Shown here piece after piece: positions 1 to 19,108 of a stretch of DNA of 19,108 bases. Under the pieces are notes generated by a model, which was not told the DNA's origin, did no database searches, and worked only from the letters and a program-made list of their open reading frames with translations. The stretch covers positions 1-19,108 of IMG/VR virus record IMGVR_UViG_2534681697_000017, one strand, 5' to 3'. Source of the stretch: a virus (lineage: Duplodnaviria > Heunggongvirae > Uroviricota > Caudoviricetes). Made by a program: the position numbers and the translations under genes. Every line of letters begins with the position of its first letter. Position 1 is the stretch's first letter.

Positions 1-277
1 TGATAAAGCGTATTCAGGGCGCGCATTGCGCAACGAGCTGAAAAATAACGGTATAAAGGCAGTAATCCCCCGAAAGTCAAATGAGAAAATGGCATCGGAT
101 GGACGTGCACAGCTTGATCGTGATGCGTACCGCAATCGTAATGTCGTTGAACGGTGCTTTGGGCGGCTGAAAGAATATCGCCGCATCGCCACGCGTTACG
201 ACAAAACGGCGAGAAATTACCTGGCGATGGTGAAACTGGGCTGCATCCGACTCTTTTATCAACGCTTACGTAATTAA
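1..277 (+). CDS. DDE transposase, C-terminal portion (IS4/IS5 superfamily, IS427-like tail); 5' end lies outside the window
   Basis: The frame is open from base 2 to the stop at 275-277. The tail VVERCFGRLKEYRRIATRYDKTARNYLAMVKLGCIRL matches the conserved C-terminal block of IS5-family (IS427-group) transposases as I recall it. The exact IS is not recognised. Confidence 0.6.
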   Translation, partial: DKAYSGRALRNELKNNGIKAVIPRKSNEKMASDGRAQLDRDAYRNRNVVERCFGRLKEYRRIATRYDKTARNYLAMVKLGCIRLFYQRLRN

Positions 278-288: not shown

Positions 289-793
289 TAATCTCCAGTT
301 TTAGCCGCTCATCACTTTGTTTTCTGTCTGAGGGTTCATGCTGTACCCAGTTGTAATAACCGCTCCTGGATACACCAAATACCTGACACATCGCTTCAAT
401 GGGAAATTGTTGTCGCCATTGTTCGATTAACGCGTATTTTTCAGCGACTCCTGTGCAAAATACGCTGTTGCTTTTTTTAATATATCTCGCTCAAGGCGAG
501 CTTCATTTAACGCCTTACGCAGTTGCAGAATTTCAGATTCCAGTTCAGCCACCGTGCGGGAACCAGGAGTACCGAGCCCTTTTCTGGCGGCGGTAACCCA
601 TTGTCCTAAAGTGCCTTCAGGAAGGGATAATCGGGAAGCGCCTTCACTGATCGAAAGTTGATTTTCAAGAACCGTTCTGACAGCTTCGGCTTTGAACTCT
701 TTAGAGTAACGTTGGGTTTTTCTGCTCATTATTAGCTCCTTCTGATGCCATTCTATTTCAGGAAGGAGTGTCCGTTAAACTCAGGCTACCTCA
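289..793 (-). mobile_element. IS600 (IS3 family), truncated copy: left inverted repeat, orfA and the first ~45 codons of orfB
   Basis: The reverse complement of 289-793 matches 2416-2920 of the complete IS600 copy at every position I compared by eye (terminal TGAGGTAGCCTGAGTTTAACGG through CTGGAGATTA); identity stops at 288/289. Confidence 0.85.
427..729 (-). CDS. IS600 OrfA (IS3-family transposase HTH subunit)
   Basis: 100-aa ORF identical in protein sequence to the orfA at 2480-2782; recognised as IS600 OrfA from memory. Confidence 0.85.
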   Translation of the reverse strand: MSRKTQRYSKEFKAEAVRTVLENQLSISEGASRLSLPEGTLGQWVTAARKGLGTPGSRTVAELESEILQLRKALNEARLERDILKKATAYFAQESLKNTR

Positions 794-2479: not shown

Positions 2480-2782
2480 ATGAGCAGAAAAACCCAACGT
2501 TACTCTAAAGAGTTCAAAGCCGAAGCTGTCAGAACGGTTCTTGAAAATCAACTTTCGATCAGTGAAGGCGCTTCCCGATTATCCCTTCCTGAAGGCACTT
2601 TAGGACAATGGGTTACCGCCGCCAGAAAAGGGCTCGGTACTCCTGGTTCCCGCACGGTGGCTGAACTGGAATCTGAAATTCTGCAACTGCGTAAGGCGTT
2701 AAATGAAGCTCGCCTTGAGCGAGATATATTAAAAAAAGCAACAGCGTATTTTGCACAGGAGTCGCTGAAAAATACGCGTTAA
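2480..2782 (+). CDS. IS600 OrfA
   Basis: 100-aa ORF with GGAG upstream; sequence recognised as IS600 OrfA (MSRKTQRYSKEFKAEAVR...). Confidence 0.9.
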   Translation: MSRKTQRYSKEFKAEAVRTVLENQLSISEGASRLSLPEGTLGQWVTAARKGLGTPGSRTVAELESEILQLRKALNEARLERDILKKATAYFAQESLKNTR

Positions 2783-2817
2783 TCGAACAATGGCGACAAC
2801 AATTTCCCATTGAAGCG

Positions 2818-3636
2818 ATGTGTCAGGTATTTGGTGTATCCAGGAGCGGTTATTACAACTGGGTACAGCATGAACCCTCAGACAGAAAACAAAGTGATGA
2901 GCGGCTAAAACTGGAGATTAAGGTGGCACATATCCGCACTCGCGAAACATATGGAACCCGGCGGCTCCAGACGGAGCTGGCAGAGAATGGCATCATCGTT
3001 GGTCGTGACCGACTGGCACGTCTTCGTAAGGAGCTAAGGCTACGCTGTAAGCAGAAACGCAAGTTCAGAGCGACTACGAACCCGAACCACAATCTGCCAG
3101 TTGCGCCAAATCTGCTGAACCAGACGTTCGCTCCTACAGCACCAAATCAGGTCTGGGTGGCGGACCTGACGTATGTTGCCACACAGGAGGGATGGTTGTA
3201 CCTCGCTGGCATCAAAGATGTTTATACGTGCGAAATTGTCGGCTACGCCATGGGAGAGCGCATGACAAAAGAGCTGACAGGTAAAGCCCTGTTTATGGCG
3301 CTCAGGAGCCAGCGCCCACCTGCCGGGCTAATCCACCACTCTGATCGAGGTTCACAGTACTGCGCATACGATTACCGGGTCATACAGGAGCAGTTTGGTC
3401 TGAAAACATCAATGTCGCGTAAAGGTAACTGTTACGACAACGCTCCGATGGAAAGCTTCTGGGGAACGCTGAAAAATGAGAGCCTGAGCCACTATCGTTT
3501 TAATAACCGGGATGAAGCCATCTCAGTAATACGGGAATACATTGAGATTTTCTACAATCGTCAGCGTCGTCACTCTCGTCTGGGGAATATCTCCCCGGCA
3601 GCCTTCAGGGAAAAATATCATCAGATGGCTGCTTAA
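2818..3636 (+). CDS. IS600 OrfB (DDE integrase-type transposase); normally made as an OrfAB fusion by -1 frameshifting
   Basis: 272-aa ORF with an rve-type DDE core (HSDRGSQY...CYDNAPMESFWGTLK). Coordinates are from the first in-frame ATG; the frame is open upstream into the orfA overlap. Confidence 0.9.
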   Translation: MCQVFGVSRSGYYNWVQHEPSDRKQSDERLKLEIKVAHIRTRETYGTRRLQTELAENGIIVGRDRLARLRKELRLRCKQKRKFRATTNPNHNLPVAPNLLNQTFAPTAPNQVWVADLTYVATQEGWLYLAGIKDVYTCEIVGYAMGERMTKELTGKALFMALRSQRPPAGLIHHSDRGSQYCAYDYRVIQEQFGLKTSMSRKGNCYDNAPMESFWGTLKNESLSHYRFNNRDEAISVIREYIEIFYNRQRRHSRLGNISPAAFREKYHQMAA

Positions 3637-4083: not shown

Positions 4084-4551
4084 TTATTTCAGGCACTGAG
4101 TCCTGATGTACTCCTGAAGCATTCTCAATGCTGTCTGGTCGCTGATGATTCCGTCCCGGATACCGAGAACGTTTCGTCCAGCAACTGGAGAGAGTTCGAC
4201 GGTGGCATCATTGCCCATGCCGGAGGCGCTGGAGGTTTCGGCTGAGGATGGCACAGGGCATTTTCCTTTGACGAGCACCCGACCACCATTATCAAGCTTG
4301 CGCCGAAGAGCATCATTTTCAGCTTTCGCATCAGCTAACTCCTTCGTGTATTTAGCATCGAGTGCATCAGCAGCACGCTGGCGCTGCTGCATGTCAGTAA
4401 TGGTTGCGTTCGCCAGCTTCAGTTCTCTTGCGTTTTTGTCGCGCTGCTCTTTGTAGGTAATGGCGTTATCACGGTAATGATTAACAGCCCATGACAGGCG
4501 GACGATGATGCAGATAACCAGAGCGGAGATAATCGCGGTGACTCTGCTCAT
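4084..4551 (-). CDS. Rz: Rz, inner-membrane spanin (i-spanin)
   Basis: N-terminal transmembrane segment then a charged coiled-coil region; sits immediately after the endolysin with the start overlapping its stop; contains an embedded lipoprotein ORF in the +1 frame. Start taken as ATG 4551 (the listed ORF begins at GTG 4563). Confidence 0.8.
4125..4331 (-). CDS. Rz1: Rz1, outer-membrane lipoprotein spanin (o-spanin), embedded in Rz
   Basis: [19 protein letters not shown] lipoprotein signal followed by a proline-rich segment ([11 protein letters not shown]), entirely inside Rz in another frame: the classic Rz/Rz1 arrangement. Confidence 0.7.
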
Positions 4552-5021
4552 TGCTGCCCCCACAAACAGACTTCACGCTCAATCTCACGACGGGTCATCA
4601 GCCCTTTCCATTGCTTACCGCCAGCATATGTCCAGCGACGTAGCTGGTCACATGCGCCTTTGATATCGCCCTGGTTTATTTTGCGAAGAAGCGTCGATGT
4701 TCTGAAATTGCCAGCGCCCACGTTGTAAACGAACGAGTAAAGAGCGCCGCGCGTTGTTTCCGGTATATCGACTTTGATGTACGGGTTAATTTGTCTGGCG
4801 ACAGTGGCAAGGTCTTTATTCAGGAGAGCTTTGCATTCTGCTTCGGTATACGTTTTACCAGGCATGATGTCTTTTCCGGTGTGTCCGTGACATACAGTCC
4901 ATACACCAATGATATCTTTGTATGGTATGTAGCTGACACCTTCCAGACCATCGTTACCACCTGGGCCAGTGATTAACACAGATGCTATAGCAAACAGCCC
5001 CGCCACCAATAGCAACTGCAA
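4548..5021 (-). CDS. R: Phage lysozyme (P21 R-like SAR endolysin); N-terminus disrupted by a frameshift, listed ORF starts at a TTG
   Basis: [15 protein letters not shown]...[15 protein letters not shown] matches P21-type endolysin as recalled. The expected ATG (5046-5044, overlapping the S stop as TAATG) opens a different frame that stops after 30 codons ([30 protein letters not shown]). See findings. Confidence 0.7.
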
Positions 5022-5045
5022 CAGCCTTGCGTAATGATGGCGACA

Positions 5046-5261
5046 TTATTCACCTCTCGCAGCCTTACGCTTATCTTCTCTTATTTTGAAATACAGATTC
5101 GTCAGATAAGTCAGAAGCCCCAGAAGCAGACTTCCCAGCACACCAATCGCAGCCCACTGTGATGGACTGACCTGATCCAACCACTGCAAAAACCAGTAGC
5201 CGGCACTGCCGGCGGAGGTGCCGTAGGCAATGCCCGTTGAAATTTTATCCATGGATTTCAT
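5046..5261 (-). CDS. S: Class II holin, P21 S-like pinholin with dual-start motif
   Basis: [71 protein letters not shown] is near-identical to S21 as I recall it; Met1-Lys-Ser-Met4 dual start; strong GGAGGTGAGG ribosome-binding site upstream. Confidence 0.85.
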
Positions 5262-5550
5262 AGCCTCACCTCCGCAAATAACGGATGGCGTAGTTCTTAT
5301 ATTGGGAAGGGAAAAAGAAGGCCGCAGCGTAACTGTCACTGATGAATTCAGGATAGCCAGTGGCTACGGCTCAGTTTTGGTTGTGCTGTTGCTGGGCGGC
5401 GATGACGCCTGTACGCATTTGGTGATCCGGTTCTGCTTCCGGCATTCGCTTAATTCAGCACAACGGAAAGAGCATTTATGACTCGCATCGCGGGAAAAAG
5501 CCCACGGTAGAGAGTCGAACTCTACAAATGCTCTTACCTGTTGTGAAAAC

Positions 5551-5580
5551 AAAAAAGCCCCGACGTTTCTGCCGAGGCTC
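5551..5580 (-). terminator. Intrinsic terminator upstream of the lysis cassette (tR'-like position)
   Basis: Minus-strand AGCCUCGGC-AGAAAC-GUCGGGGCU forms a 9-bp stem (two G-U pairs) followed by UUUUUU. Confidence 0.5.
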
Positions 5581-5812
5581 TTACCTAATCTAGCCAGTAT
5601 GTCGACCCTAAATATTATCGACGACCGGGGAAATCAGGATTTCAATTTCACTGCTCAGTTCGCTTTTGCTCCGAGCATATGCAAAAAATACCACTTTCAT
5701 TTCTCGGAAGCAACGCATTTACAAAATTATTTCAGTTCAGGCCGCTATTAATGGAAATTCTTTATCCAATTCTCGTTTCATTGCATAAAACATTTCTGAC
5801 TCCAGCACTTTC

Positions 5813-6263
5813 TCACACCACTCGCTTACGACAATACTGAATATCAGCACCTGTTATATAAGAAATAATCCTGGCTATATCTTGCGTGCAATTGCGATTG
5901 CAATATCGCTTAATAGCTACATCGCGGACAGGGCTTTCACGGTGAAACGTCTTAACCATGTCCGGCATCCCACTGAGCAGACGTGAGCGTTCCGCACGAG
6001 ATACATGGTAAATAGCGATCACGCTCCCTGATATAAGCATTTACTGCCTGCTGTGCCTGCTTCAGCCAGTAACTGCGGGGTTTTAAATCGCGGCGTCTTG
6101 CTTTCAGCTTGTCTGCCTGTTCTTTTGCTGAGGCTATAGCCTTTTCTTTTCTGACCAGTTCCAGTGCACACTGACCACAACAAACTTTCTGATATGAGCG
6201 GAACGGCACAAACTGATTGCCACACACTTTGCAGTTTTTGGGTTTACGCTGTTTCATTATCAC
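5813..6263 (-). pseudogene. ninG: ninG (rap)-like recombination protein gene, disrupted
   Basis: The first 103 codons (5952-6263) match lambda NinG as recalled ([43 protein letters not shown]) and then hit a stop; the downstream sequence continues only in another frame. Confidence 0.6.
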
Positions 6264-7673: not shown

Positions 7674-9183
7674 GCTGGCCTCCGGTCATGGCTTTCTTGC
7701 GCCCTTTGGCATAGGCAATGATCTTTGACTTGATGAAATTGTGCACTTCAACCGAGGTTTGCAGCGGCGCGTTACTGAAGCCTTTAGGCCACACCCCGAA
7801 CTTCTCTTTGTAGGTATGAGCGCACCATCCGTCACTCAGTGGCTTACCTGTCGCGTTGCGGTAATTCTGATAGCCCTTGATCTCACTCCACCACCGCTGT
7901 TTTTCCTCGCGGCTGTATTCGCGTTTCCCTTTGTTTACGCGAGAGAGTTTTCGATCGCGGTCTGTTGCCACATCATCGCCACCAAGAGGACGAAACCCAC
8001 ATTTGGGACACATGTGTACACCAGCAGGCTTCATGAAGTGGCATTTGGGGCATTCTCTGGGAAGTTTTTCAGCTTTAACCTCGCCACCGCCAGCAGACGC
8101 TTTCATTCCGTCATTTTTGCCCGGCAGTTCGTCATACTCGATATCCTCGGGGAAACCCAGCCGATGAACCGTGCCAGAATGGTCGAAAATCAACGCACGT
8201 TGTTTACCTGGGGCTGTACGTAACGCTCTACCTATGCACTGCAACCAACGGATTTCTGATTTTGTCGGACGGGCATAGATCAGGCAGCGAACATCGCTGT
8301 CAAATCCCGCAACCAGTACGCCGACGTTGACAATTATTTTGGTCACGCCCTCTTCAAAACGGCGAATGATGTCCTGTCGTTCATCATGGAGGGTATCTGC
8401 CATCATCACCTCTGCGCCAATACCGGCCTGTAAAAACTCACGGGTAACAAAATTCGCATGCGCAACATTCACACAGAAGCAGATCGTCGGCAAATCCTCA
8501 CCATTCTCAAGCCAGTTGCGAACGATATCGCCAACCAGATCCGAACTCCCCATGATGGATGCGAGCTGCTCCTCGTTGTAATCCCGTCCAAATACGGTGT
8601 TACTGGTTTTTACGCCAGCCAGATCAGGCATTGAGGGGGCAAAAAACTCATAATCGCTCAGATCACCACGCTGAATAAGTTCACGAATCGTTGTAGGCTT
8701 GATCAGGCATTCGTAGTACTTCCCCATCCAGGCTGCGAACGGGGTACCGGAAAGTCCAAGAACCCTGATGTCTCTGTCCCGGATAACCTCAAGTAACGCA
8801 CGACGCTTCATGTGTGCTTCATCGATGATCAGCAGATCGATGTTGTCAGGAAACTCACGACGGATCAGCGTGTCGGCACTGGCAATCTGAATCAGTCGTG
8901 ACGGGTCATAGTTAGGGTGATCACGCCATACAAAACTGATTTCTTCCCACGGCAAACCGTATTCGGTGAAACGTTCCGCTGTCTGGTTCAGCAGGATGGT
9001 GTACGGACAGACAAACATCACTCGCATACCACGTTCAACCATTCCGGCGGTGACGAATGCTGCAAGACCAGTTTTGCCAGAGCCAGTGGGTGCATACATC
9101 AGGTACGTGCGATGCTGTTTCCACTGGTGCCGCAGCTGGTTTAAACCGCGCTCCTGAGCAAAGTTTGGGATTATTTTCAGCAT
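7663..9183 (-). CDS. Superfamily-2 DEAD/DEAH-box helicase with C-terminal zinc ribbon (phage replicative helicase)
   Basis: Walker A (APTGSGKT), DEAH box (LLIIDEAHM), C-terminal CPKCHFMKP...CPKCGF. 506 aa. Confidence 0.8.
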   Translation of the reverse strand: MLKIIPNFAQERGLNQLRHQWKQHRTYLMYAPTGSGKTGLAAFVTAGMVERGMRVMFVCPYTILLNQTAERFTEYGLPWEEISFVWRDHPNYDPSRLIQIASADTLIRREFPDNIDLLIIDEAHMKRRALLEVIRDRDIRVLGLSGTPFAAWMGKYYECLIKPTTIRELIQRGDLSDYEFFAPSMPDLAGVKTSNTVFGRDYNEEQLASIMGSSDLVGDIVRNWLENGEDLPTICFCVNVAHANFVTREFLQAGIGAEVMMADTLHDERQDIIRRFEEGVTKIIVNVGVLVAGFDSDVRCLIYARPTKSEIRWLQCIGRALRTAPGKQRALIFDHSGTVHRLGFPEDIEYDELPGKNDGMKASAGGGEVKAEKLPRECPKCHFMKPAGVHMCPKCGFRPLGGDDVATDRDRKLSRVNKGKREYSREEKQRWWSEIKGYQNYRNATGKPLSDGWCAHTYKEKFGVWPKGFSNAPLQTSVEVHNFIKSKIIAYAKGRKKAMTGGQHAN

Positions 9184-9563
9184 GACGCCCCCTTGCTACG
9201 TGATTTACCCGTTGCCGGGATCACGTCGATCTCATCGCTAACGTATTGATCCGGATTACGTGAACAGCGCAGAAGCACGATACCAGGAATGCCGTATAGC
9301 TTGAGTCTGCGCAGTTTCAGTATTGAACGTGCCCGTGGTGACGCTCTGTCCACCTCGATCGCGCACCGTTCACCAGATGGGGCAACGACCATGATATCGA
9401 CGAATCCGCGCTTACCGTTGCCCATATCAACCAGATAATTACGTTCGATCGCCAGTCCGGCATCACGCAATTTGGCAGCCAGCACATAATCAAACGTGAC
9501 CTTGTCTTTTCCGGTGTAGAATTTGTTTCCGAGCAGGCTGATAACCACATGTTTGATGAACAT
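9177..9563 (-). CDS. Hypothetical protein, possibly nuclease-fold (VRR-NUC/PD-(D/E)xK-like), coupled to the helicase
   Basis: 128-aa ORF whose stop overlaps the helicase start. The GFVDIMVV...AIEVD segment loosely resembles a PD-(D/E)xK core; weak inference. Confidence 0.45.
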   Translation of the reverse strand: MFIKHVVISLLGNKFYTGKDKVTFDYVLAAKLRDAGLAIERNYLVDMGNGKRGFVDIMVVAPSGERCAIEVDRASPRARSILKLRRLKLYGIPGIVLLRCSRNPDQYVSDEIDVIPATGKSRSKGASC

Positions 9564-9785
9564 GGTACTATTTCCACCGCAATAGTTGGCATAATAATAA
9601 TTTCGCCAGAAACCATCTCACCCTATACAGTGATCTACCTAACCTATGGAGCTGCCTTCCTCTGGTAGTGCCCTTACAGGCACGGATGTTACAGATCTGC
9701 CCCCTTACCCCCTTCTTAGTAAAATTTCAAGCGCAATGATTTCATGAGAAATCATTTCACAAAAAAATAATCACCTTGATGAGAT

Positions 9786-10067
9786 CTATTCCTTCCGTAT
9801 CGCTACTGGCGAAAGCATCCAGCCACGGCTGGCTCTCGCGTACTTCTGGACATACACCCGTAACCGGGTGTTGGCACTCCGTCTTGCCCTGTTGCCCTTC
9901 CTGAACGATACAGGCTCCTTGTCCCACTCTTCCTGGTACACTCTCGCGTACTCTGCTGCAATTTTTACCCTGGTGGTCGGGTCTAGCTGTAACAATTGCT
10001 CCTGTATCCAGTCCCGATCAGCATCACAGTACTGATCGGGCATAACCGTTTTGATTTGCCTGTTCAC
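9786..10067 (-). CDS. Hypothetical protein (93 aa), first gene after cro-like
   Basis: GTG start at 10067 preceded by GGAGGTG at 5-nt spacing; an alternative ATG lies at 10043. No recognisable domain. Confidence 0.5.
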   Translation of the reverse strand: MNRQIKTVMPDQYCDADRDWIQEQLLQLDPTTRVKIAAEYARVYQEEWDKEPVSFRKGNRARRSANTRLRVYVQKYARASRGWMLSPVAIRKE

Positions 10068-10089
10068 TCACACCTCCGATGGAGGGTTA

Positions 10090-10329
10090 TCAGGCTGTTT
10101 GCCTTACATGAAGCGGAATACCATCTTCCATGTTTAGGTAGTCATGCGGGTTTAGTTCATGGGGAGTTACATTCCAGTCTGTAGCTTTTGCCCATTCAAT
10201 GGCTTTCCGCCCCTGAGGCATGTATCTCCCTGTAATAACCCCACTGACAAATCCCTGAGAAACTCCAACAATCGCCGCAAAATCGGCTTGTCTGATAGAG
10301 CTTTGTCTCAAGTACTCGTCAAGAGTCAT
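10090..10329 (-). CDS. Cro-like HTH regulator (Cro/YdaS-type)
   Basis: Transcribed divergently from cI; helix-turn-helix SIRQADFAAIVGVSQGFVSGVITGR; GGGAGG ribosome-binding site 7 nt upstream of the ATG. Confidence 0.65.
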   Translation of the reverse strand: MTLDEYLRQSSIRQADFAAIVGVSQGFVSGVITGRYMPQGRKAIEWAKATDWNVTPHELNPHDYLNMEDGIPLHVRQTA

Positions 10330-10434
10330 AGAGATCCTCCCATTTCAATTTTCCGATATTAGCTTACCTGATTTAAATGTCAATAGGCTAGCTATTTGAT
10401 AAATATTTGTGTTGCTAATAAAATTGGAGGCACT
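10330..10434. promoter_or_regulatory. cI/cro divergent intergenic control region (oR-like, pR/pRM-like)
   Basis: 105-bp AT-rich spacer between divergent repressor genes; contains an imperfect dyad TAGCTTACC...GGCTAGCTA. Operators are not individually resolved. Confidence 0.5.
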
Positions 10435-11154
10435 ATGACGAAGAAAATTACAATTACTGACAAAGACATCCAGAACGCTGAACGACTGCGCAAAATCTGG
10501 GATGAAAAACGGAAACAGCTATCCCTAAGCCAGGAAAAAGCCGCAGATATCCTCGGCTTCAAAACGCAGGGGGCTGTTAGTCAGTTATTGAACGCAAAAA
10601 TTGCGTTAAATACTGAAAATACCCTTAAGTTTGCGGCTTTATTACAGGTTCCTGCGGAAGAAATTAATCCAGATCTGAGTGATTTGTTACGCAGTATTCG
10701 TACCCACACACCGGGAAACAGGCGTAACCTGTTCGAGAAATATTACGAATATCCGTTACTCTCCTGCGTACAGGCTGGAGCTTTCTCAATGGATGATTTT
10801 TCGTACACCGCAAAGGATGCGATTAAGTGGATCTCCACCACCACAAAAGCCAGTGACAGGTCGTTCTGGCTGGAGGTCAAGGGGCATTCAATGACCGCGC
10901 CGCAGGGTGGTAAACCCAGTTTCCCCGAAGGGATGCTGATACTCGTTGACCCTGAGCGGGAGATTGAGGATGGCGATTTTTGCGTGGCCCGAATGAATGG
11001 CGATGAATTCACCTTCAAACGATTCATTCGTGAGAGCGGTAAAGCGTACCTGGAGCCACTCAACCCACGATTCGACATGATTGAGTGTAACGAAAACTGC
11101 CAGTTTGTCGGAAAGGTCATAAAGTCGCAGTGGAATGATGAGACTTTTGATTGA
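10435..11154 (+). CDS. cI: Lambda-family CI repressor (HTH plus S24 LexA-like autopeptidase domain)
   Basis: C-terminal half ([32 protein letters not shown]...[11 protein letters not shown]...[14 protein letters not shown]) closely resembles the lambda CI C-terminal domain as recalled, including an Ala-Gly site (VQAGAF). N-terminal HTH is divergent. Start at ATG 10435 with GGAGG upstream. Confidence 0.9.
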
Positions 11155-11275
11155 ACTCACAGGATGATATCAATAACCTTGCAGGGAGGCTATTTTATTT
11201 CCTTTTTCAGCGAAAAATCTCCGAGAACCCTCGCCCAATGCGGGCGGGGAGCAGTCGCAATCAAGTGAGCCATAA

Positions 11276-11446
11276 ATGAACAAAGACAAATCCTTGACAC
11301 AACAAGTGGAAGAAATACTTAGCAAGCAAAAAGTTAGCGAGCAAGGAAAAATGATTCAATCATTAAAGAACATGGGCTTGATCAACAAGCCTGTTTTTAC
11401 TTTGGCTTATGGACCAGATATTACAACCTGCCAAATGCACCAATAA
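11276..11446 (+). CDS. Small ORF (56 aa) downstream of cI, unknown function
   Basis: ATG 11276 to TAA 11444-11446, immediately followed by a strong terminator; weak ribosome-binding site; below the size cutoff of the supplied ORF track. Confidence 0.3.
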   Translation: MNKDKSLTQQVEEILSKQKVSEQGKMIQSLKNMGLINKPVFTLAYGPDITTCQMHQ

Positions 11447-11478
11447 CAAAACCCGGCCTTGGTGCCGGGTTTTGTTTG
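11447..11478. terminator. Bidirectional intrinsic terminator between the cI and hicAB transcription units
   Basis: AAAACCCGGC-CTTGGT-GCCGGGTTTT perfect 10-bp stem, flanked by T-runs on both strands. Confidence 0.7.
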
Positions 11479-11560
11479 CCTCCTGCTCACCCCACCATTT
11501 ACCAGTGCGCCGTAAATTCCCCATTCTTCGGCGGTGAGGATGTCAAAGACGAAGGGAACA

Positions 11561-11905
11561 TTAAGCCCCTGTGTGATGGTTGACTTCTTTTTCCAGCGCC
11601 TTATTAACAAAGGCGTTCAGTGATAAATCTTCTTCCATCGCCATTTCAGCGACCCGACGATGCAGTTCTGGATCAAGTCTGACGTTAAACACACCTTTAA
11701 ACGGGGTATCAGGCTCCTTTCCATCCTCCACACAAGACTGTAAATACAGCTCAACCGATGTCTTAAACTCCTGTTCCAGTTCAGCTAATGTAGAAGCCTC
11801 ATAAGTTACCAGGTCTCGAATAAACGCCAGTTTTCCGTACAGGATATTATTTTCAAAATCTGGTTCTACTGTACCTAAATATCCTTTATATTTTAGATGA
11901 TTCAT
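11561..11905 (-). CDS. hicB: HicB-family antitoxin (HicB fold plus C-terminal ribbon-helix-helix)
   Basis: ATG overlaps the hicA stop (ATGA at 11902-11905); C-terminal ELHRRVAEMAMEEDLSLNAFVNKALEKEV is RHH-like. Confidence 0.7.
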   Translation of the reverse strand: MNHLKYKGYLGTVEPDFENNILYGKLAFIRDLVTYEASTLAELEQEFKTSVELYLQSCVEDGKEPDTPFKGVFNVRLDPELHRRVAEMAMEEDLSLNAFVNKALEKEVNHHTGA

Positions 11906-12156
11906 AATACCCCAGCCTCTTTCAGATTCTGTTTAATCGCTTTCAGCGTTCCACCTTTAATATAACTTTCTGGATGTGGGCGATGCATTAATATGGTGTG
12001 GTTGATTTCAGCATTGAAAAACCGCACTCTTGAGCCCTGCATTTCCTTTTTGACATATCCCAGAGAGGAAAACAAAACGACCAACTCATCCCATTCAAAC
12101 GTTTTTTTACTGTTTAAAAACTTTTCCAGTAGCTTATCTGCTTTCCCCATACCCAC
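11902..12156 (-). CDS. hicA: HicA-family toxin (mRNA interferase)
   Basis: GSRVRF...HRPHP...IKGGTLKAIKQNLKEAG matches the HicA consensus. The listed start is GTG 12156; an alternative ATG lies at 12150. Confidence 0.7.
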   Translation of the reverse strand: MGMGKADKLLEKFLNSKKTFEWDELVVLFSSLGYVKKEMQGSRVRFFNAEINHTILMHRPHPESYIKGGTLKAIKQNLKEAGVL

Positions 12157-12305
12157 ATAATCTCATCTTCGCTACATTGCAACTAATTATAGTTACAGGC
12201 GATGTTTTTGTCAAAAGCCACCAAGCCCGCTGGGTTCTCTTTGACTGTTCACTGCTTTTCTTAGTGTTATCAGGGGGTTCCCTCACACCAAATCTAACAC
12301 AGAGT

Positions 12306-12332
12306 AACCGGCCTCAGCGCCGGTTTTTCTTT
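12306..12332 (+). terminator. Plus-strand intrinsic terminator upstream of the putative early-left promoter
   Basis: AACCGGC-CTCAGC-GCCGGTT stem followed by TTTTTCTTT; no U-run on the opposite strand. Confidence 0.55.
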
Positions 12333-12443
12333 GCGCATCCTCCATAACTCACCACCTGCATTATCCTCGCTTATATTTTTTACATAAATAAATTAATCTA
12401 AAAATCAATCACATAGATTAAAATTAAATTATCAGTCTTACTA

Positions 12444-12473
12444 TTAACTGCGATCAGTTGCGCTTATTATATT
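12444..12473 (+). promoter_or_regulatory. Candidate early-left (pL-like) promoter
   Basis: TTAACT, an 18-nt spacer, then TATATT, within a very AT-rich block; read by eye only. Confidence 0.3.
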
Positions 12474-12495
12474 TTACCCAAGCCAGAAACATCGC

Positions 12496-12565
12496 GCCCT
12501 GACACAGGGCTACATAAATCAGTCGTACGGCGCGACTTAACCCGCCGCAAAATGCTCTTTAACAA
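12496..12565 (+). promoter_or_regulatory. Antitermination-like element: boxB-like hairpin (12496-12510) plus rrn-type boxA (12553-12565)
   Basis: GCCCTGACACAGGGC has the same stem as lambda nut boxB (GCCCU...AGGGC) with a different loop; TGCTCTTTAACAA equals the E. coli rrn boxA consensus as recalled. Confidence 0.4.
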
Positions 12566-12854
12566 TCTGGAGCTTTACAGCGTCAATGACCTGTTTAGAC
12601 CCCTACACGTAAACGTGCTGTATCATCGGGTGCGATCCGGTCGATGAGAGAGTATCCCCGCGCGAGAGCGAGAACGGCGTGAGAACGGGCAACACTGGCA
12701 GGAAGTTGGCGCTGACCAATACAGGGAATGTTTTGGGGTGCAGGCGGCACCGCCAAAGCATTTCCGAGAAAGGACGATATTGACTGCGTGTGATGTCGGG
12801 GCTATATTTGGCGAACACCTCATAAAACGGGTGCCGGGATTAGCACCCCGAAAG

Positions 12855-12893
12855 TTACTCGAGCGCATAACCGCGCTGAAGCGGTTTTTTTAT
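12855..12893 (+). terminator. Putative intrinsic terminator in the leader just upstream of the Rha-like gene
   Basis: CGCATAA-CCGCGCTGAAGCGG-TTTTTTTATGCG: inner hairpin (ACCGC/GCGGT) plus T7 run, enclosed by an outer CGCATAA/TTATGCG stem. Confidence 0.4.
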
Positions 12894-13057
12894 GCGTAAT
12901 GCACAGCCACATTCAAATTATGGTGAGGCGTGCGGGGCAGCCGCAAGGCTGGCCGGGTTCTCGAGTGACCGGTAGTGCTAACCCTGTGCGTCTCACCACC
13001 CATGAGATTAGCACCTCTGGTGGTGAGTTAATTAACTTATCACTTGAGGATGTCATT

Positions 13058-13435
13058 ATGGCTACTACCCTTTCTCACCCTGACGTAACCATCGAAAATG
13101 GTCGCGCCGTCACTACTTCTATTTCGATTGCTGAGTTTTTTGGCAAGCAGCATCACCATGTTGTTCAGAAAATAGAATCCCTCGAATGCTCTGAGCAATT
13201 CTTAACCCGCAACTTTTCGCGGGTTAAATTCGAACACCGAGGCAATACCTATAACGCCTACCAAATCACCAAAAACGGCTTCGTTTTTCTGGTGATGGGC
13301 TTCACCGGCAAAAAAGCAGCTGCATTCAAGGAAGCCTACATTGCTGAATTCGATCGCATGGAAAAACAACTATGGGAACAGAAACAACTGGCCCTGTCTT
13401 CTCCTGCGATGAATATCAATTTCCCTTTATCGTAG
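13058..13435 (+). CDS. Rha-family phage regulatory protein (125 aa)
   Basis: VTTSISIAEFFGKQHHHVVQKIESL resembles the Phage_pRha motif. Start at ATG 13058 with GAGGA 7 nt upstream; the longer ORF from 12899 is rejected. Confidence 0.6.
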   Translation: MATTLSHPDVTIENGRAVTTSISIAEFFGKQHHHVVQKIESLECSEQFLTRNFSRVKFEHRGNTYNAYQITKNGFVFLVMGFTGKKAAAFKEAYIAEFDRMEKQLWEQKQLALSSPAMNINFPLS

Positions 13436-13462
13436 TTTTCAGAGCATCACCCCTATGCCACG

Positions 13463-13696
13463 ATGAACTATGTTGATAGAAATACATTGCAGCTTGATAC
13501 CTCCGTCTTATTCGACATGCCAAGCCCTGCAATGCGCATATTTAATGAATTACGTCGTAACGGCTATAACGTCGATGCGGCTGTCGCCGAATTTAACGCC
13601 TTCAAGCATCTGACGGAAGAAATGCGCCGTAAATTGCTGGATATTTCCCGCACATCGGAAAAGTCTTCCCGCTTTGGTTTCAACGTTAATCTTTAA
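13463..13696 (+). CDS. Hypothetical protein (77 aa)
   Basis: ORF in the early-left operon; weak ribosome-binding site. Confidence 0.45.
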   Translation: MNYVDRNTLQLDTSVLFDMPSPAMRIFNELRRNGYNVDAAVAEFNAFKHLTEEMRRKLLDISRTSEKSSRFGFNVNL

Positions 13697-13766
13697 TTAA
13701 CCCCATCCCCGATCACATATCGGGGATTAAATTAAATATCTGGATTAATTAACCGGAGGATTTGTC

Positions 13767-13979
13767 ATGCTCAAACCTCACTACGGAACCGCATTAGTTT
13801 CTCGCGAGGACGTTAAACCCGGTACAGCAATTCTTTACAACGGGCGTTATTACATGGCGTCAGCTAACGTTAATAATGCACTTTACGCACATTCACTGAT
13901 TGAAAAAATCCGCATTATTTCAGATGCAATCGAAGTTTACCTGAACCATAAAGGCCAACCGTTAATCTCACCAGCCTGA
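13767..13979 (+). CDS. Hypothetical protein (70 aa)
   Basis: ATG preceded by CCGGAGGA. Confidence 0.55.
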   Translation: MLKPHYGTALVSREDVKPGTAILYNGRYYMASANVNNALYAHSLIEKIRIISDAIEVYLNHKGQPLISPA

Positions 13980-13990
13980 AAGGAAATATC

Positions 13991-14272
13991 ATGCTCAATC
14001 AAAAAATTAATATCAATGTAAAAAACGTCATAACGCCAGCAGAAACGATAATGGGAGAAGTTTTTATGGATGATAAAATCATCGCCTATTTTGTCGTCCT
14101 GCCTGATGAGGCTATTTCTGTTATTGATACGGAAGGCAATGTTATGTTTATCGCGGAACATCCAGAAGACATCGCATTACAGGCCGCTGCATATTTCTTC
14201 GCTAAAGAGCAGGAGGAAGAATGTAACTGCCCTGTCTGTCAGCTTTCCCGACAAATTAATTTAATGCATTAA
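13991..14272 (+). CDS. Hypothetical protein (93 aa), acidic with C-terminal CxxC
   Basis: ATG preceded by AAAGGAAA. Confidence 0.55.
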   Translation: MLNQKININVKNVITPAETIMGEVFMDDKIIAYFVVLPDEAISVIDTEGNVMFIAEHPEDIALQAAAYFFAKEQEEECNCPVCQLSRQINLMH

Positions 14273-14292
14273 CCGGAATCAGGAGTTCCGCC

Positions 14293-14574
14293 ATGAACGC
14301 ATACCTCACCTGCGACCGCATAGAGGAGCGTCGCTGGGTTAATCAGCATATTCAGGATGAAAAGGATAAATGGATTGATGATCGGGCGCAGGAGCTTATC
14401 AGCATGTTCCCCGATAAACCATTGCTTATGAGCAGCCTTTTTTTACCCAAAGAAGCCCAACTGGCACTCACTGGCGAAAAAGCTGAAGAGGCGTACAACG
14501 ATTATATCTCAGCGATCGCCTATGCTCGGGCGGAAGAAGAATGGGAGAGAAAATTCTCCCCCTGTCCTTTCTGA
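14293..14574 (+). CDS. Hypothetical protein (93 aa)
   Basis: ATG preceded by CAGGAG. Confidence 0.55.
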   Translation: MNAYLTCDRIEERRWVNQHIQDEKDKWIDDRAQELISMFPDKPLLMSSLFLPKEAQLALTGEKAEEAYNDYISAIAYARAEEEWERKFSPCPF

Positions 14575-14591
14575 TTTTCAGGACCAAAAAA

Positions 14592-15541
14592 ATGTTCGAT
14601 ATCGTTGAATTTGTTAAGCAGCAGGAGCGCTTTTTCTGCGAGGCATTAACTGAACCGACGCTGACATGGGCGAAGGAAAGTCAGTTTGCAATTCAGCAAT
14701 TCCAGAAAAATGCCTTTCTGGCTGACACAGCACGGGCAAATCTGCCCAGCGCACAGAACGCTATCATCAATGTTGCCGCCATCGGCATAACCCTGAACCC
14801 GGCCAGCAAGCTGGCGTATCTGGTCCCACGAAAAAAGGCTGTATGCCTGGATATCAGTTATATGGGGCTTCTGCATCTGGCACAGGTCACAGGAGCCATT
14901 CAGTGGGGGCAATGCAAACTTGTTTACGAGAAGGACATTTACGAGTCCAACGGTATTGACTGCGCCCCCACGCACAAATACAACCCATTCGTAGACAGGG
15001 GCGCACGCATTGGCGGTTATTGTGTCGTAAAAACATCCGAAGGCGACTATCTGACCGAAGAGATGAGCAACAGGGAAATCGAGGTCATCAGGGCGTGCAG
15101 CAAAGCCGGAAATAACGGAGGAAGTAGCCCGTGGGATAGTTTCCCCGATGAAATGGCCAGAAAAGCCATTGTAAGCGCGCCAGCAAATACTGGCCCCGTC
15201 GCGATCGCCTGGATACAGCTATCGACTACCTGAACACTCAGGCCGGTGAAGGTATCATCCTGAATGCTGATCACATCCCTGAGCGTGACGTCACTCCCGC
15301 ATCAGATGAGATTATCAATGAGATCACTCAGGCAATCACCGAAATTAACAAGACATGGGATGACCTGCTTCCCTTATGTTCCAAAACATTCCGTCGCACG
15401 ATTGCATCACATGAATATCTCAGTCAGGAAGAAGCTGTCAAAACGCTTGATTTTGTCAAAAAGAAAGCTGCCAGAAACAAGGCCACGGCGGAAGCGAAAA
15501 TTCACGCCACCACGGAAAATAGCAGCGAGGCCGTGTCATGA
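14592..15541 (+). pseudogene. recT: RecT-family single-strand annealing protein, interrupted by a -1 frameshift near 15172
   Basis: The N-terminal 213 codons (14592-15233) are RecT-like (AIGITLNPASKLAYLVPRKK...). The expected C-terminal continuation (KRASKYWPRRDRLDTAIDYLN...SEAVS) is read in the -1 frame from about 15173 to the TGA at 15539-15541, which overlaps the exonuclease start. Confidence 0.7.
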
Positions 15542-16227
15542 CACCAGAAATTATTCTCCAGCGAACTGGCGTGGATATTACCAGCCTCGACCAGGGCGAT
15601 GATGGATGGCACAAGCTGAGACTCGGTGTTATCACTGCTTCAGAAGTTCACAATGTGATAGCAAAGCCACGTTCCGGCAGCAAATGGCCTGATACAAAAA
15701 TCTCATACTTCCACACCCTGCTGGCTGAAGTTTGTACCGGCGTGGCACCGGAAGTTAACGCTAAGTCGCTCGCATGGGGAAAGCAATACGAAGATGATGC
15801 CCGTGCCATCTTCGAATTTATCGCGGATGTTACCGTCTCGGAAACGCCAATAATTTTTCGTGACGAAAGCATGCGCACCGCCTGCTCTCCCGACGGTTTA
15901 TGCAGCGACGGTAACGGCCTTGAGCTTAAATGCCCCTTCACTTCCCGCGACTTCATGAAGTTCCGGCTTGGCGGCTTTGACGCTATCAAGCCTGCTTACA
16001 TGGCCCAAGTGCAATTCAGCATGTGGGTTACAGACAAGGACGCCTGGTACTTCGCCAACTACGACCCACGCATGAAGCGTGAAGGCCTGCATTATGTCGT
16101 GGTCGAGCGGGATGAAAAGTACATGACGAGTTTTGATGAGATGGTGCCGGAGTTCATCGACAAAATGGACGAAGCACTGGCGGAAATTGGTTTTGTATTT
16201 GGAGAACAATGGGGGGTTAATAACTAA
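15538..16227 (+). CDS. YqaJ-type (lambda-exo-like) phage exonuclease, PD-(D/E)xK
   Basis: 229-aa ORF with motifs SPDGL...GLELKCP...AYMAQVQ; paired with recT upstream; GCGAGG ribosome-binding site. Confidence 0.8.
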
Positions 16228-17174
16228 TGGATGAAGTGATTTTTACTTATAACGAAGAATCAGCACTGACCGCCGGACAAGGTGGTTTTATTACCGAAAC
16301 GGGTGCGCATATCATTAACATCACCGAAGCAGAACTCAAGCAATCAGAAAAAGGTGCCCGATTCATTGAGTTTTCTGGAGAATCCGACGACGGACGGAAA
16401 ATCCAATATCTCAGTGTTTGTGTTCAGAAGAATGACGGCACTGAAAATAAATTTGGGGCGAGCATTATTCACGCCATGATGGGATGCACAGGAATTGGGC
16501 AGTTAACGCAACATATGGTTTCCGTCAGTGAATCAAAACAAATATCTGAATGCTATGTGGCGCAAAGGAGGCAAACAGTGAGCGAAATTGACTATCAGGC
16601 ACTGCGTGAAAAGGCAGAGAAAGCAACGTGGGGTGTGTGGTCGCTCGAATATGGAGAGGAGAAACTTGATGCTGATGATGCGCTAATTCACCGTGAAGTT
16701 GTTGGATATCTTCCTATTTGCAGAATTGAAGGAGCGCATCCTGAAAGCGGTTTCGATGAAGATTTCCAAATGGAACAGCAGGCCAATGCTGAATTCATCG
16801 CCGCAGCCAATCCGGCTACTGTGCTGACACTGCTGAGCGAGCTGGAAACAGCAAAAAAGCGCATAGCAGAACTGGAAGCCAAACCTGTAAGCCAGACTTA
16901 CAAGTTGAATGAGATGTCGGGCAACTCTCCGGTAATTCCGGATGGTTGGATAAGCTGTAGTGATCGAATGCCTGAAAAGGGCCAGAACGTACTTATTTCG
17001 GTGAATTTCGATAGCTCTCTGGTTGAACCGCTAATATGCTCCGCACGCTATACCGGAGGTACATTCCGGCGTGGAGATGTAACGGTTAAGCCAGGTAATG
17101 GTATTGAACAGGCAACCCACTGGATAGACTGGCCCCCTGAATCTCCAGACAACCAGTATCACTTAAATAAGTGA
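16227..17174 (+). CDS. Ead/Ea22-like protein with C-terminal DUF551-like domain; last ~15 codons and stop supplied by the IS2 terminus
   Basis: [22 protein letters not shown] is Ea22-like; the C-terminal ...ATHW resembles the DUF551 end. The reading frame continues into the IS2 left inverted repeat ([16 protein letters not shown]). Confidence 0.6.
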
Positions 17175-17357
17175 TAGTCTTAATACTAGTTTTTAGACTA
17201 GTCATTGGAGAACAGATGATTGATGTCTTAGGGCCGGAGAAACGCAGACGGCGTACCACACAGGAAAAGATCGCAATTGTTCAGCAGAGCTTTGAACCGG
17301 GGATGACGGTCTCCCTGAACCGCCCCGGGTTTCCTGGAGAGTGTTTTATCTGTGAAC

Positions 17358-18240
<883 letters not shown>

Positions 18241-18244
<4 letters not shown>

Positions 18245-18567
18245 TTTTTCCAGAGGCGGTCGAACTCCGCCTTCGCAAAATAAGCGGAAGCCTGGCGAAG
18301 GATATCGTTACTGCGGCGCAGTTCACGATTTTCACGCTCCAGCTCTTTCAGACGCTGACGTTCAGCGGTGGTGAGCCCTCCATCACCGCCCCCGGTATCC
18401 CGCTCATGCTGGCGAACCCAGACACGCAGAGTCTCCGGCGTACAGCCAATCTTTGGAGCAATGGAACAAATTGTCGCCCATTGTGAGTCATATTCGCCCT
18501 GACTTTCCAGAACCATACGGACTGCCCGTTGACGGACTTCGGGGGAAAAACGAGTATTTTTAGTCAT
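18241..18567 (-). CDS. IS629 OrfA
   Basis: 108-aa [42 protein letters not shown]... recognised from memory. Confidence 0.9.
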
Positions 18568-18847
18568 CCTGTTTACCTCTTTCTCAGGAAGTTTAGTCTC
18601 CAGGATTCCCGGGGCGGTTCACCCTCGTTGCCCGGCAACATGGTGTAGCAGCCAGCCAGTTATTTCTCTGGCGTAAGCAATACCAGGAAGGAAGTCTTAC
18701 TGCTGTGGCCGCCGGAGAACAGGTTGTTCCTGCCTCTGAACTTGCTGCCGCCATGAAGCAGATTAAAGAACTCCAGCGCCTGCTCGGCAAGAAAACGATG
18801 GAAAATGAACTCCTCAAAGAAGCCGTTGAATATGGACGGGCAAAAAA

Positions 18848-19108
18848 GTGGATAGCGCACGCGCCCTTATTGCCCGGGGATGGGGAGTAAGCTTAGTCAG
18901 CCGTTGTCTCCGGGTGTCGCGTGCGCAGTTGCACGTCATTCTCAGACGAACCGATGACTGGATGGATGGCCGCCGCAGTCGTCACACTGATGATACGGAT
19001 GTGCTTCTCCGTATACACCATGTTATCGGAGAGCTGCCCACGTATGGTTATCGTCGGGTATGGGCGCTGCTTCGCAGACAGGCAGAACTTGATGGTATGC
19101 CTGCGATC
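18848..19108 (+). CDS. insD: IS2 OrfB (InsD), 5' portion; 3' end outside window
   Basis: GTG 18848 then [45 protein letters not shown]... recognised as InsD; the frame is open to the window end. Confidence 0.8.

Follow-up and report, generated by a model that had tools for sequence, protein, structure and literature searches.

The question raised by this locus is why a recT gene, lying between two intact partners in a phage recombination module, changes reading frame partway along its length: whether the change is an error of a draft assembly, a frameshift that the cell makes use of, or a genuine mutation, and what the resulting product could still do. The window analyzed here is the whole 19,108-nucleotide stretch of DNA. 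It corresponds to contig AERN01000035.1 in its entirety, and the assembly to which that contig belongs, GCA_000193915.2, is listed as Shigella boydii ATCC 9905 (ST1749) (PMC6397287). Positions are numbered from its first letter, and the features discussed below are collected in Table 1.

Translation in frame 0 from the ATG at 14592, which coincides with the annotated start of the intact E. coli homologs, leaves 213 codons open before a TGA at 15231-15233 ends recT early. The -1 frame (frame 2) has the complementary pattern, with 9 stops within 14606-15149 and the next only at the TGA of 15539-15541, which shares the ATGA at 15538-15541 with the start codon of the exonuclease gene at 15538. A preliminary description of this DNA had placed a frame switch at about 15168-15181 and had joined 193 N-terminal codons to a C-terminal peptide (KRASKYWPRRDRLDTAIDYLN) ending at that ATGA overlap, and translation together with the stop map agrees with it on each of these points. 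The sequence ATTGTAAGCGCGCC lies at 15168-15181, and 15165-15181 reads GCC ATT GTA AGC GCG CC. Alignment with intact recT homologs, which the preliminary description had proposed as a check, shows that a single base is missing: four E. coli alleles have ATT GTT AAG CGC where the window has ATT G-T AAG CGC, and the gene measures 950 bp in the window versus 951 bp in the intact homologs. Judged from this alignment, the lost base is one T of the TT pair in GTT-AAG (window 15171-15173). The one-base loss proposed in the preliminary description does break recT, but the base had been taken for an A (GTAAAG) within a short A-run, and the homologs place a T (GTTAAG) and a TT pair there instead. The repaired protein derived from that wrong base (IVKRASKYW) is nonetheless correct because GTT and GTA both encode Val. 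The out-of-frame tail of 20 codons, VSAPANTGPVAIAWIQLSTT, likewise begins with GTA (15171-15173), so that its first residue is still Val.

Table 1. Features of the gamL-recT-exo module and of the surrounding prophage in the window
Feature	Position	Strand	Remarks
gamL	14293..14574	+	Intact; encodes the 93-aa host nuclease inhibitor GamL and opens the gamL-recT-exo module
Truncated recT frame	14592..15233	+	193 native codons (14592-15170) plus 20 out-of-frame codons, premature TGA
Deletion site	15171..15173	+	G-T-A in the window, G-T-T-A in homologs
recT 3' remnant, untranslated, -1 frame	15173..15541	+	Ancestral codons 194-316 plus TGA stop
Coding remnant of Bet (Red-beta)-type C-terminal domain	15266..15490	+	Ancestral residues 225-299
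GAGG, possible Shine-Dalgarno for exo	15527..15530	+	7 nt upstream of ATG
exo	15538..16227	+	Lambda exonuclease homolog, intact, 229 aa (PDB, Pfam)
IS5-family fragment	26-277		
IS600-like (IS3-family) copy	427-729	-	orfA identical to that of the other copy, inverted
IS600-like (IS3-family) copy	2480-3636	+	orfA identical to that of the other copy, inverted
Rz/lysozyme/holin	4084-5339	-	
Holin	5046-5339	-	
ninG, short	5952-6263	-	ORF of 103 aa
DUF1367, primase, helicase, cro		-	Beyond ninG
cI-like repressor	10396-11154	+	
HicA/HicB toxin-antitoxin pair	11561-12156	-	Between cI-like repressor and Ash/Rha gene
Ash/Rha, kil, 93-aa ORF, gamL, recT, exo, Ea22-like gene		+	In that order
IS2, apparently split by an IS3-family element	17171-18890		Directly after Ea22-like gene
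IS3-family element, apparently inside IS2	orfA 18241-18567, orfB 17358-18026	-	

The -1 frame downstream of the break is not open by chance, because with the frame restored residues 225-299 match chains annotated as "Recombination protein bet" (PDB 8tfu_A, E = 8.3e-19; 6m9k_D, E = 1.1e-14). What the preliminary description had called a RecT-like C-terminus is a real coding remnant, more precisely of a lambda Bet (Red-beta)-type C-terminal domain. A scan of the -1 frame for ATG, GTG, or TTG codons from which this domain alone could be restarted returned only a GTG at 15533, just two codons ahead of where that frame ends, and separate expression of the C-terminal domain was rejected on this basis. 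The full-length frame expected of a RecT family member is interrupted here by the 1-nt deletion and the premature stop, and we take this copy of recT to be a RecT-family pseudogene and not a functional member.

To place this allele among its relatives, we performed a megablast search of 14592-15541 against 5,426 complete E. coli genomes. The gene was found in 148 of them, and 143 of these matches cover at least 80% of the query, with identities of 97 to 99.7% to the window recT. The full-length matches listed span 951 bp save for one 952-bp copy that is annotated as frameshifted, and nearly all of the homologs are annotated as "RecT family recombinase" followed by "lambda exonuclease family protein." A 131-bp query spanning the break (15110-15240) matched none of the complete E. 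coli genomes in its deleted form; the highest identity, 99.2%, corresponds to one gap. The imbalance is also apparent in exact-sequence look-ups, in which one 316-aa intact allele occurs on at least 1,000 contigs and the frameshifted allele on 8, window included. The 952-bp copy, in E. coli O111:H8 strain 8B (NZ_CP077473.1, KP516_RS07855; "recombinase RecT, frameshifted"), is the same gene with an insertion elsewhere, and it retains an intact GTTAAG at the site of the window's deletion; its frameshift, known from the annotation, may be a real mutation or an assembly error.

The protein WP_000459721.1, encoded by Stx-type lambdoid prophages of E. coli (O103:H2 12009, ATCC 43889, and O104:H4 2009EL-2050), comes from loci with the same start, the same ATGA overlap with exo, and the same gamL-recT-exo order as the window. 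The two alleles share 99.7% DNA identity; that of the window is one T shorter, and its product has 213 aa as opposed to 316 aa. Once repaired, the window protein differs from WP_000459721.1 at two residues (G218A and N311S). The only two substitutions relative to the nearest intact allele (window 15243 and 15522) are both nonsynonymous and both lie downstream of the frameshift, a distribution that fits drift after inactivation or relaxed constraint, with a sample of two that is too small for statistics.

The preliminary description had left room for a sequencing error, in which case the real genome would read GTTAAG and recT would be intact. The record of the window, AERN01000035.1, is a draft contig dating from about 2011, and single-base indel errors are frequent in draft assemblies of that era. 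When the truncated product of 213 aa, with the 20 out-of-frame residues at its end, was looked up by exact sequence, seven contigs were returned: CP026875.1, a complete chromosome of 5.16 Mb that encodes the exact product, and six Logan contigs from runs that include SRR1811688, ERR200286, and DRR015921. The sequence GCCATTGTAAGCGCGCC was present in all four loci retrieved. Three of the Logan contigs align to the window at 99.93 to 100% identity over about 4 kb, that is, with 0 to 3 substitutions, and from these differences the Logan carriers appear to be related, nonidentical strains. A 230-aa version of the product that begins at an upstream ATG was found on exactly one record, AERN01000035.1, the window itself. 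An exact-pattern scan with 30 nt across the deletion gave 0 matches in a collection of one-genome-per-species contigs, a result that is uninformative, the Shigella lineage presumably being unrepresented there.

The deletion is thus shared by a closed chromosome and six contigs whose assemblies are independent and draw on other read sets, and the carriers differ slightly from the window by substitutions and so are not copies of one record. Its presence in separate assemblies and read sets indicates a mutation of the lineage rather than a fault of one assembly. Some weight on the side of an error comes from the closed genome, which has four probable homopolymer indel errors near the locus, but the deletion in recT fell on a TT pair and not in a long homopolymer. 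With the deletion found in seven further contigs, we regard a sequencing or assembly error as extremely unlikely, and the objection that the preliminary description had raised against itself can be set aside.

CP026875.1 is probably a Shigella chromosome, as the accession CP026878 close by belongs to the Shigella series of Kim et al. (2018) and CP026875.1 itself does not occur in the set of complete E. coli genomes. Comparison of the window with CP026875.1 revealed four single-base indels, at window positions 9188, 10569, 11246, and 11467, all in C or G runs and each time with CP026875.1 one base shorter. The helicase and the cI-like repressor are split genes in CP026875.1 and single open reading frames in the window. 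These four indels are probably homopolymer errors of CP026875.1.

A genuine deletion would still be compatible with a functional gene if full-length RecT were produced from the two frames by programmed -1 ribosomal frameshifting or by transcriptional slippage, the second possibility for which the preliminary description had allowed. The geometry of the locus permits this: a -1 shift anywhere within 15152-15230 would rejoin the frames, and an A_AAA_G at 15161-15165 lets a single tRNA-Lys re-pair in the -1 frame, where a slip would give a near-full-length protein with AIV changed to SHC. The signals that usually accompany such events were not found, however. The interval 15152-15230 holds no X_XXY_YYZ heptamer in the zero frame, only the four-A run at 15161, and the 95 nt of downstream RNA fold no more stably than shuffled versions, whose mean minimum free energy is -23.9 kcal/mol as compared with -25.7 kcal/mol here (z = -0.58). 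No homopolymer longer than 4 was found, which is too short for transcriptional slippage. Close relatives with the same flanking sequence carry one continuous 951-bp open reading frame that requires no shift, and since the relatives all have a single frame, the two-frame arrangement is derived and rare. The heptamer, RNA fold, and homolog tests yield no evidence in favor of programmed frameshifting, and we consider it, along with transcriptional slippage, exceedingly improbable. Spontaneous slippage on A_AAA_G may occur, rarely if it is present, and nothing suggests that it has been selected for.

Two other sequences within recT were considered as slippery sites. T_TTC_CCC at 15140 was discarded, as a slip there would run into the -1-frame stop at 15149. 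An in-frame A_AAA_AAG at 14831-14837, a classic dnaX-type slippery sequence, offers no rescue, as frame 2 contains stops from 14957 onward, and this heptamer is probably incidental. We note that in the allele of E. coli SMN152SH1 the AAAAAG at 14832-14837 is replaced by GGCGGT.

With the frame restored, the 316-aa protein matches Pfam PF03837 RecT over residues 31-204 (86.9 bits against a cutoff of 24, E = 1.7e-24) and PHROG 148, "RecT-like ssDNA annealing protein," over residues 4-315 (320.8 bits, E = 3.5e-95). The truncated frame keeps a PF03837 match of 75.8 bits over residues 31-195, corresponding to profile positions 5-167 of 198. The 193 native N-terminal residues have no PDB match even at E = 10, and for this reason the break was mapped in the fold solely by pairwise alignment with lambda Bet, to which the repaired protein is 43% identical over 129 aa (BLASTP). 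The C-terminal part of the lambda Bet sequence used for this mapping agrees with the PDB chains, and placements through its 140-177 segment are tentative. W180 aligns with the near-universal W143 of Red-beta, and the last native residue, V193, with I157.

Studies of Red-beta show that residues 1-177 are sufficient for annealing in vitro, that the contacts with lambda Exo, and potentially with SSB, are made by residues 178-261, that K172 is reportedly critical, and, in the 6m9k structure, how the Bet C-terminal domain sits in complex with lambda exonuclease (PMC9512822). Our alignment places the break at the position matching Red-beta residue 157, ahead of the equivalents of R161 and K172. By this placement the product is predicted to lack the last part of the annealing core, from the equivalent of Red-beta 158 to its end, and with it the conserved Arg161 region that binds DNA. 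By analogy with Red-beta, the whole of the Bet-type C-terminal domain that docks lambda exonuclease, and probably SSB, is gone as well. RecT function has in all likelihood been lost, although some residual ssDNA binding is conceivable given that most of the RecT core is kept.

Retention of that core raises the possibility that the 213-aa protein is itself useful and has been selected, either for annealing uncoupled from Exo and SSB or as a dominant-negative factor against the recombinases of incoming phages. Red-beta 1-177 does anneal DNA alone in vitro (PMC9512822), the truncated frame retains 163 of the 198 positions of the Pfam RecT profile, and the allele has outlasted some divergence among strains. 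The cut at the Red-beta 157 equivalent nevertheless falls short of that minimal 1-177 fragment and precedes the equivalents of R161 and K172, which are needed in vivo; the product also carries a 20-residue nonsense tail, and the prophage around it is decaying. Persistence of the allele among carriers that diverge by 0 to 3 SNPs per 4 kb is equally expected of a neutral pseudogene. We therefore think it very unlikely that the truncated protein has been kept for a useful activity. There is likewise only a slim chance that the gene is not dead, either because the truncated core still anneals DNA or acts as a dominant negative to the benefit of the host (for example, against recombination of superinfecting lambdoid phages), or because low-level slippage at A_AAA_G yields traces of full-length protein, which would make the allele leaky and not null.

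In contrast to recT, both of its partners are intact. GamL matches the NCBIfam model NF033500 (phi80_GamL) with 147.9 bits against a cutoff of 40 (E = 6.5e-44) and has the same length as its E. coli homolog, with 2 aa differences. The exonuclease, which the preliminary description had correctly judged to be intact, is full-length relative to lambda Exo (PDB 6m9k_A and 1avq_A, E = 4e-139, residues 1-225), matches Pfam YqaJ with 98.2 bits, and has the same length as its E. coli homolog, with 2 aa substitutions. The pairing of recT with a 5'-3' exonuclease gene in one operon is still evident from the ATGA at 15538-15541. With recT now ending early, a stretch of 305 nt between the new stop and the start codon of exo goes untranslated, and the ancestral stop/start coupling of recT to exo through ATGA would be lost, with a presumed effect on exo expression. 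The GAGG upstream of exo may permit initiation independent of this coupling. In the gene table of the draft record, covering the DNA of window 11541-18233, no gene is listed between recT and the IS3-family transposase, and both exo and an Ea22-like open reading frame of 315 aa are clearly intact in that unannotated interval.

The wider window has the appearance of a degraded or defective lambdoid, Stx-phage-like prophage remnant riddled with IS elements. Its closest phages are Stx2a-converting phages, with 95 to 97% identity over 71% of the region 9000-17200. In the minus-strand region 5340-6263, the ninG frame is roughly half as long as usual, and neither a Q antiterminator gene nor stx lies between it and the holin gene; it seems that the late regulatory region was lost by deletion. 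At the position of HicAB, the prophage of E. coli ATCC 43889 instead carries an Eco57I-type methylase and a BsuBI/PstI-type endonuclease, and from this comparison the position appears to be a slot for exchangeable cargo.

At least five IS elements or fragments are present in the window. The two IS600-like copies bracket a 1.7-kb nonphage segment whose genes are annotated in E. coli as a MarR regulator and an SPFH-domain protein, the SPFH gene being cut by the second copy, and the arrangement resembles a composite transposon. At the other end of the window, the N-terminus of the IS2 orfA begins at 17171 and its apparent C-terminus lies at 18705-18890, which would place the intervening IS3-family element within IS2.

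Taken together, we conclude with high confidence that a genuine, vertically inherited 1-nt deletion has made a pseudogene of recT in this lambdoid gamL-recT-exo module. Loss of one T from GTT-AAG has frameshifted the gene for the single-strand annealing protein, and the frame from the ATG at 14592 now runs through 193 native residues and 20 out-of-frame codons before the stop at 15231-15233. A product without the end of the annealing core and the entire Bet-type docking domain would presumably be nonfunctional, and the early stop would also uncouple translation of exo from that of recT. In a defective S. boydii prophage, selection for phage recombination functions has probably been relaxed; that this applies to recT itself is likewise probable, with only two substitutions relative to the nearest intact allele to judge by.

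The locus should be annotated as a single frameshifted recT pseudogene; a short RecT gene with a gap behind it would be the wrong reading. It exemplifies how recombination modules of prophages continue to decay in Shigella, and how a single-base frameshift in a draft contig can be verified through independent assemblies built from reads, with no need to return to the reads themselves. A minor point for users of recombineering is that this prophage family combines a RecT-type core, a Bet-type C-terminal domain, and a lambda-type exonuclease.

A frameshift that turns a gene of a defective prophage into a pseudogene is an ordinary and already understood kind of lesion. Frameshifted prophage genes in Shigella are found against a background of IS expansion and pseudogene accumulation, and the window offers the same setting, with IS600-like, IS2, IS3-family, and IS5-family elements alongside truncated genes; nothing sets this recT apart from typical Shigella decay, and it was a point deletion and not an IS element that struck the gene. 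The other system with which the module invites comparison is lambda Red-beta/Exo (PDB 6M9K and 8TFU). The lost C-terminal domain is homologous to that of Red-beta (E = 8e-19, 43% identity), and lambda Exo is a close homolog of the partner nuclease (E = 4e-139). The N-terminal annealing domain, in contrast, belongs to Pfam RecT and has no sequence match to any PDB chain, Red-beta included, and the inhibitor is a phi80-type GamL where lambda has Gam. By its sequence the module appears to be a composite of a RecT-type annealing core, a Bet-type docking domain, and a lambda-type exonuclease, and by analogy its intact form should work like Red, with the exonuclease resecting DNA and the annealing protein loaded through its C-terminal domain. 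Unlike in lambda, the annealing gene of the module in this window is broken.
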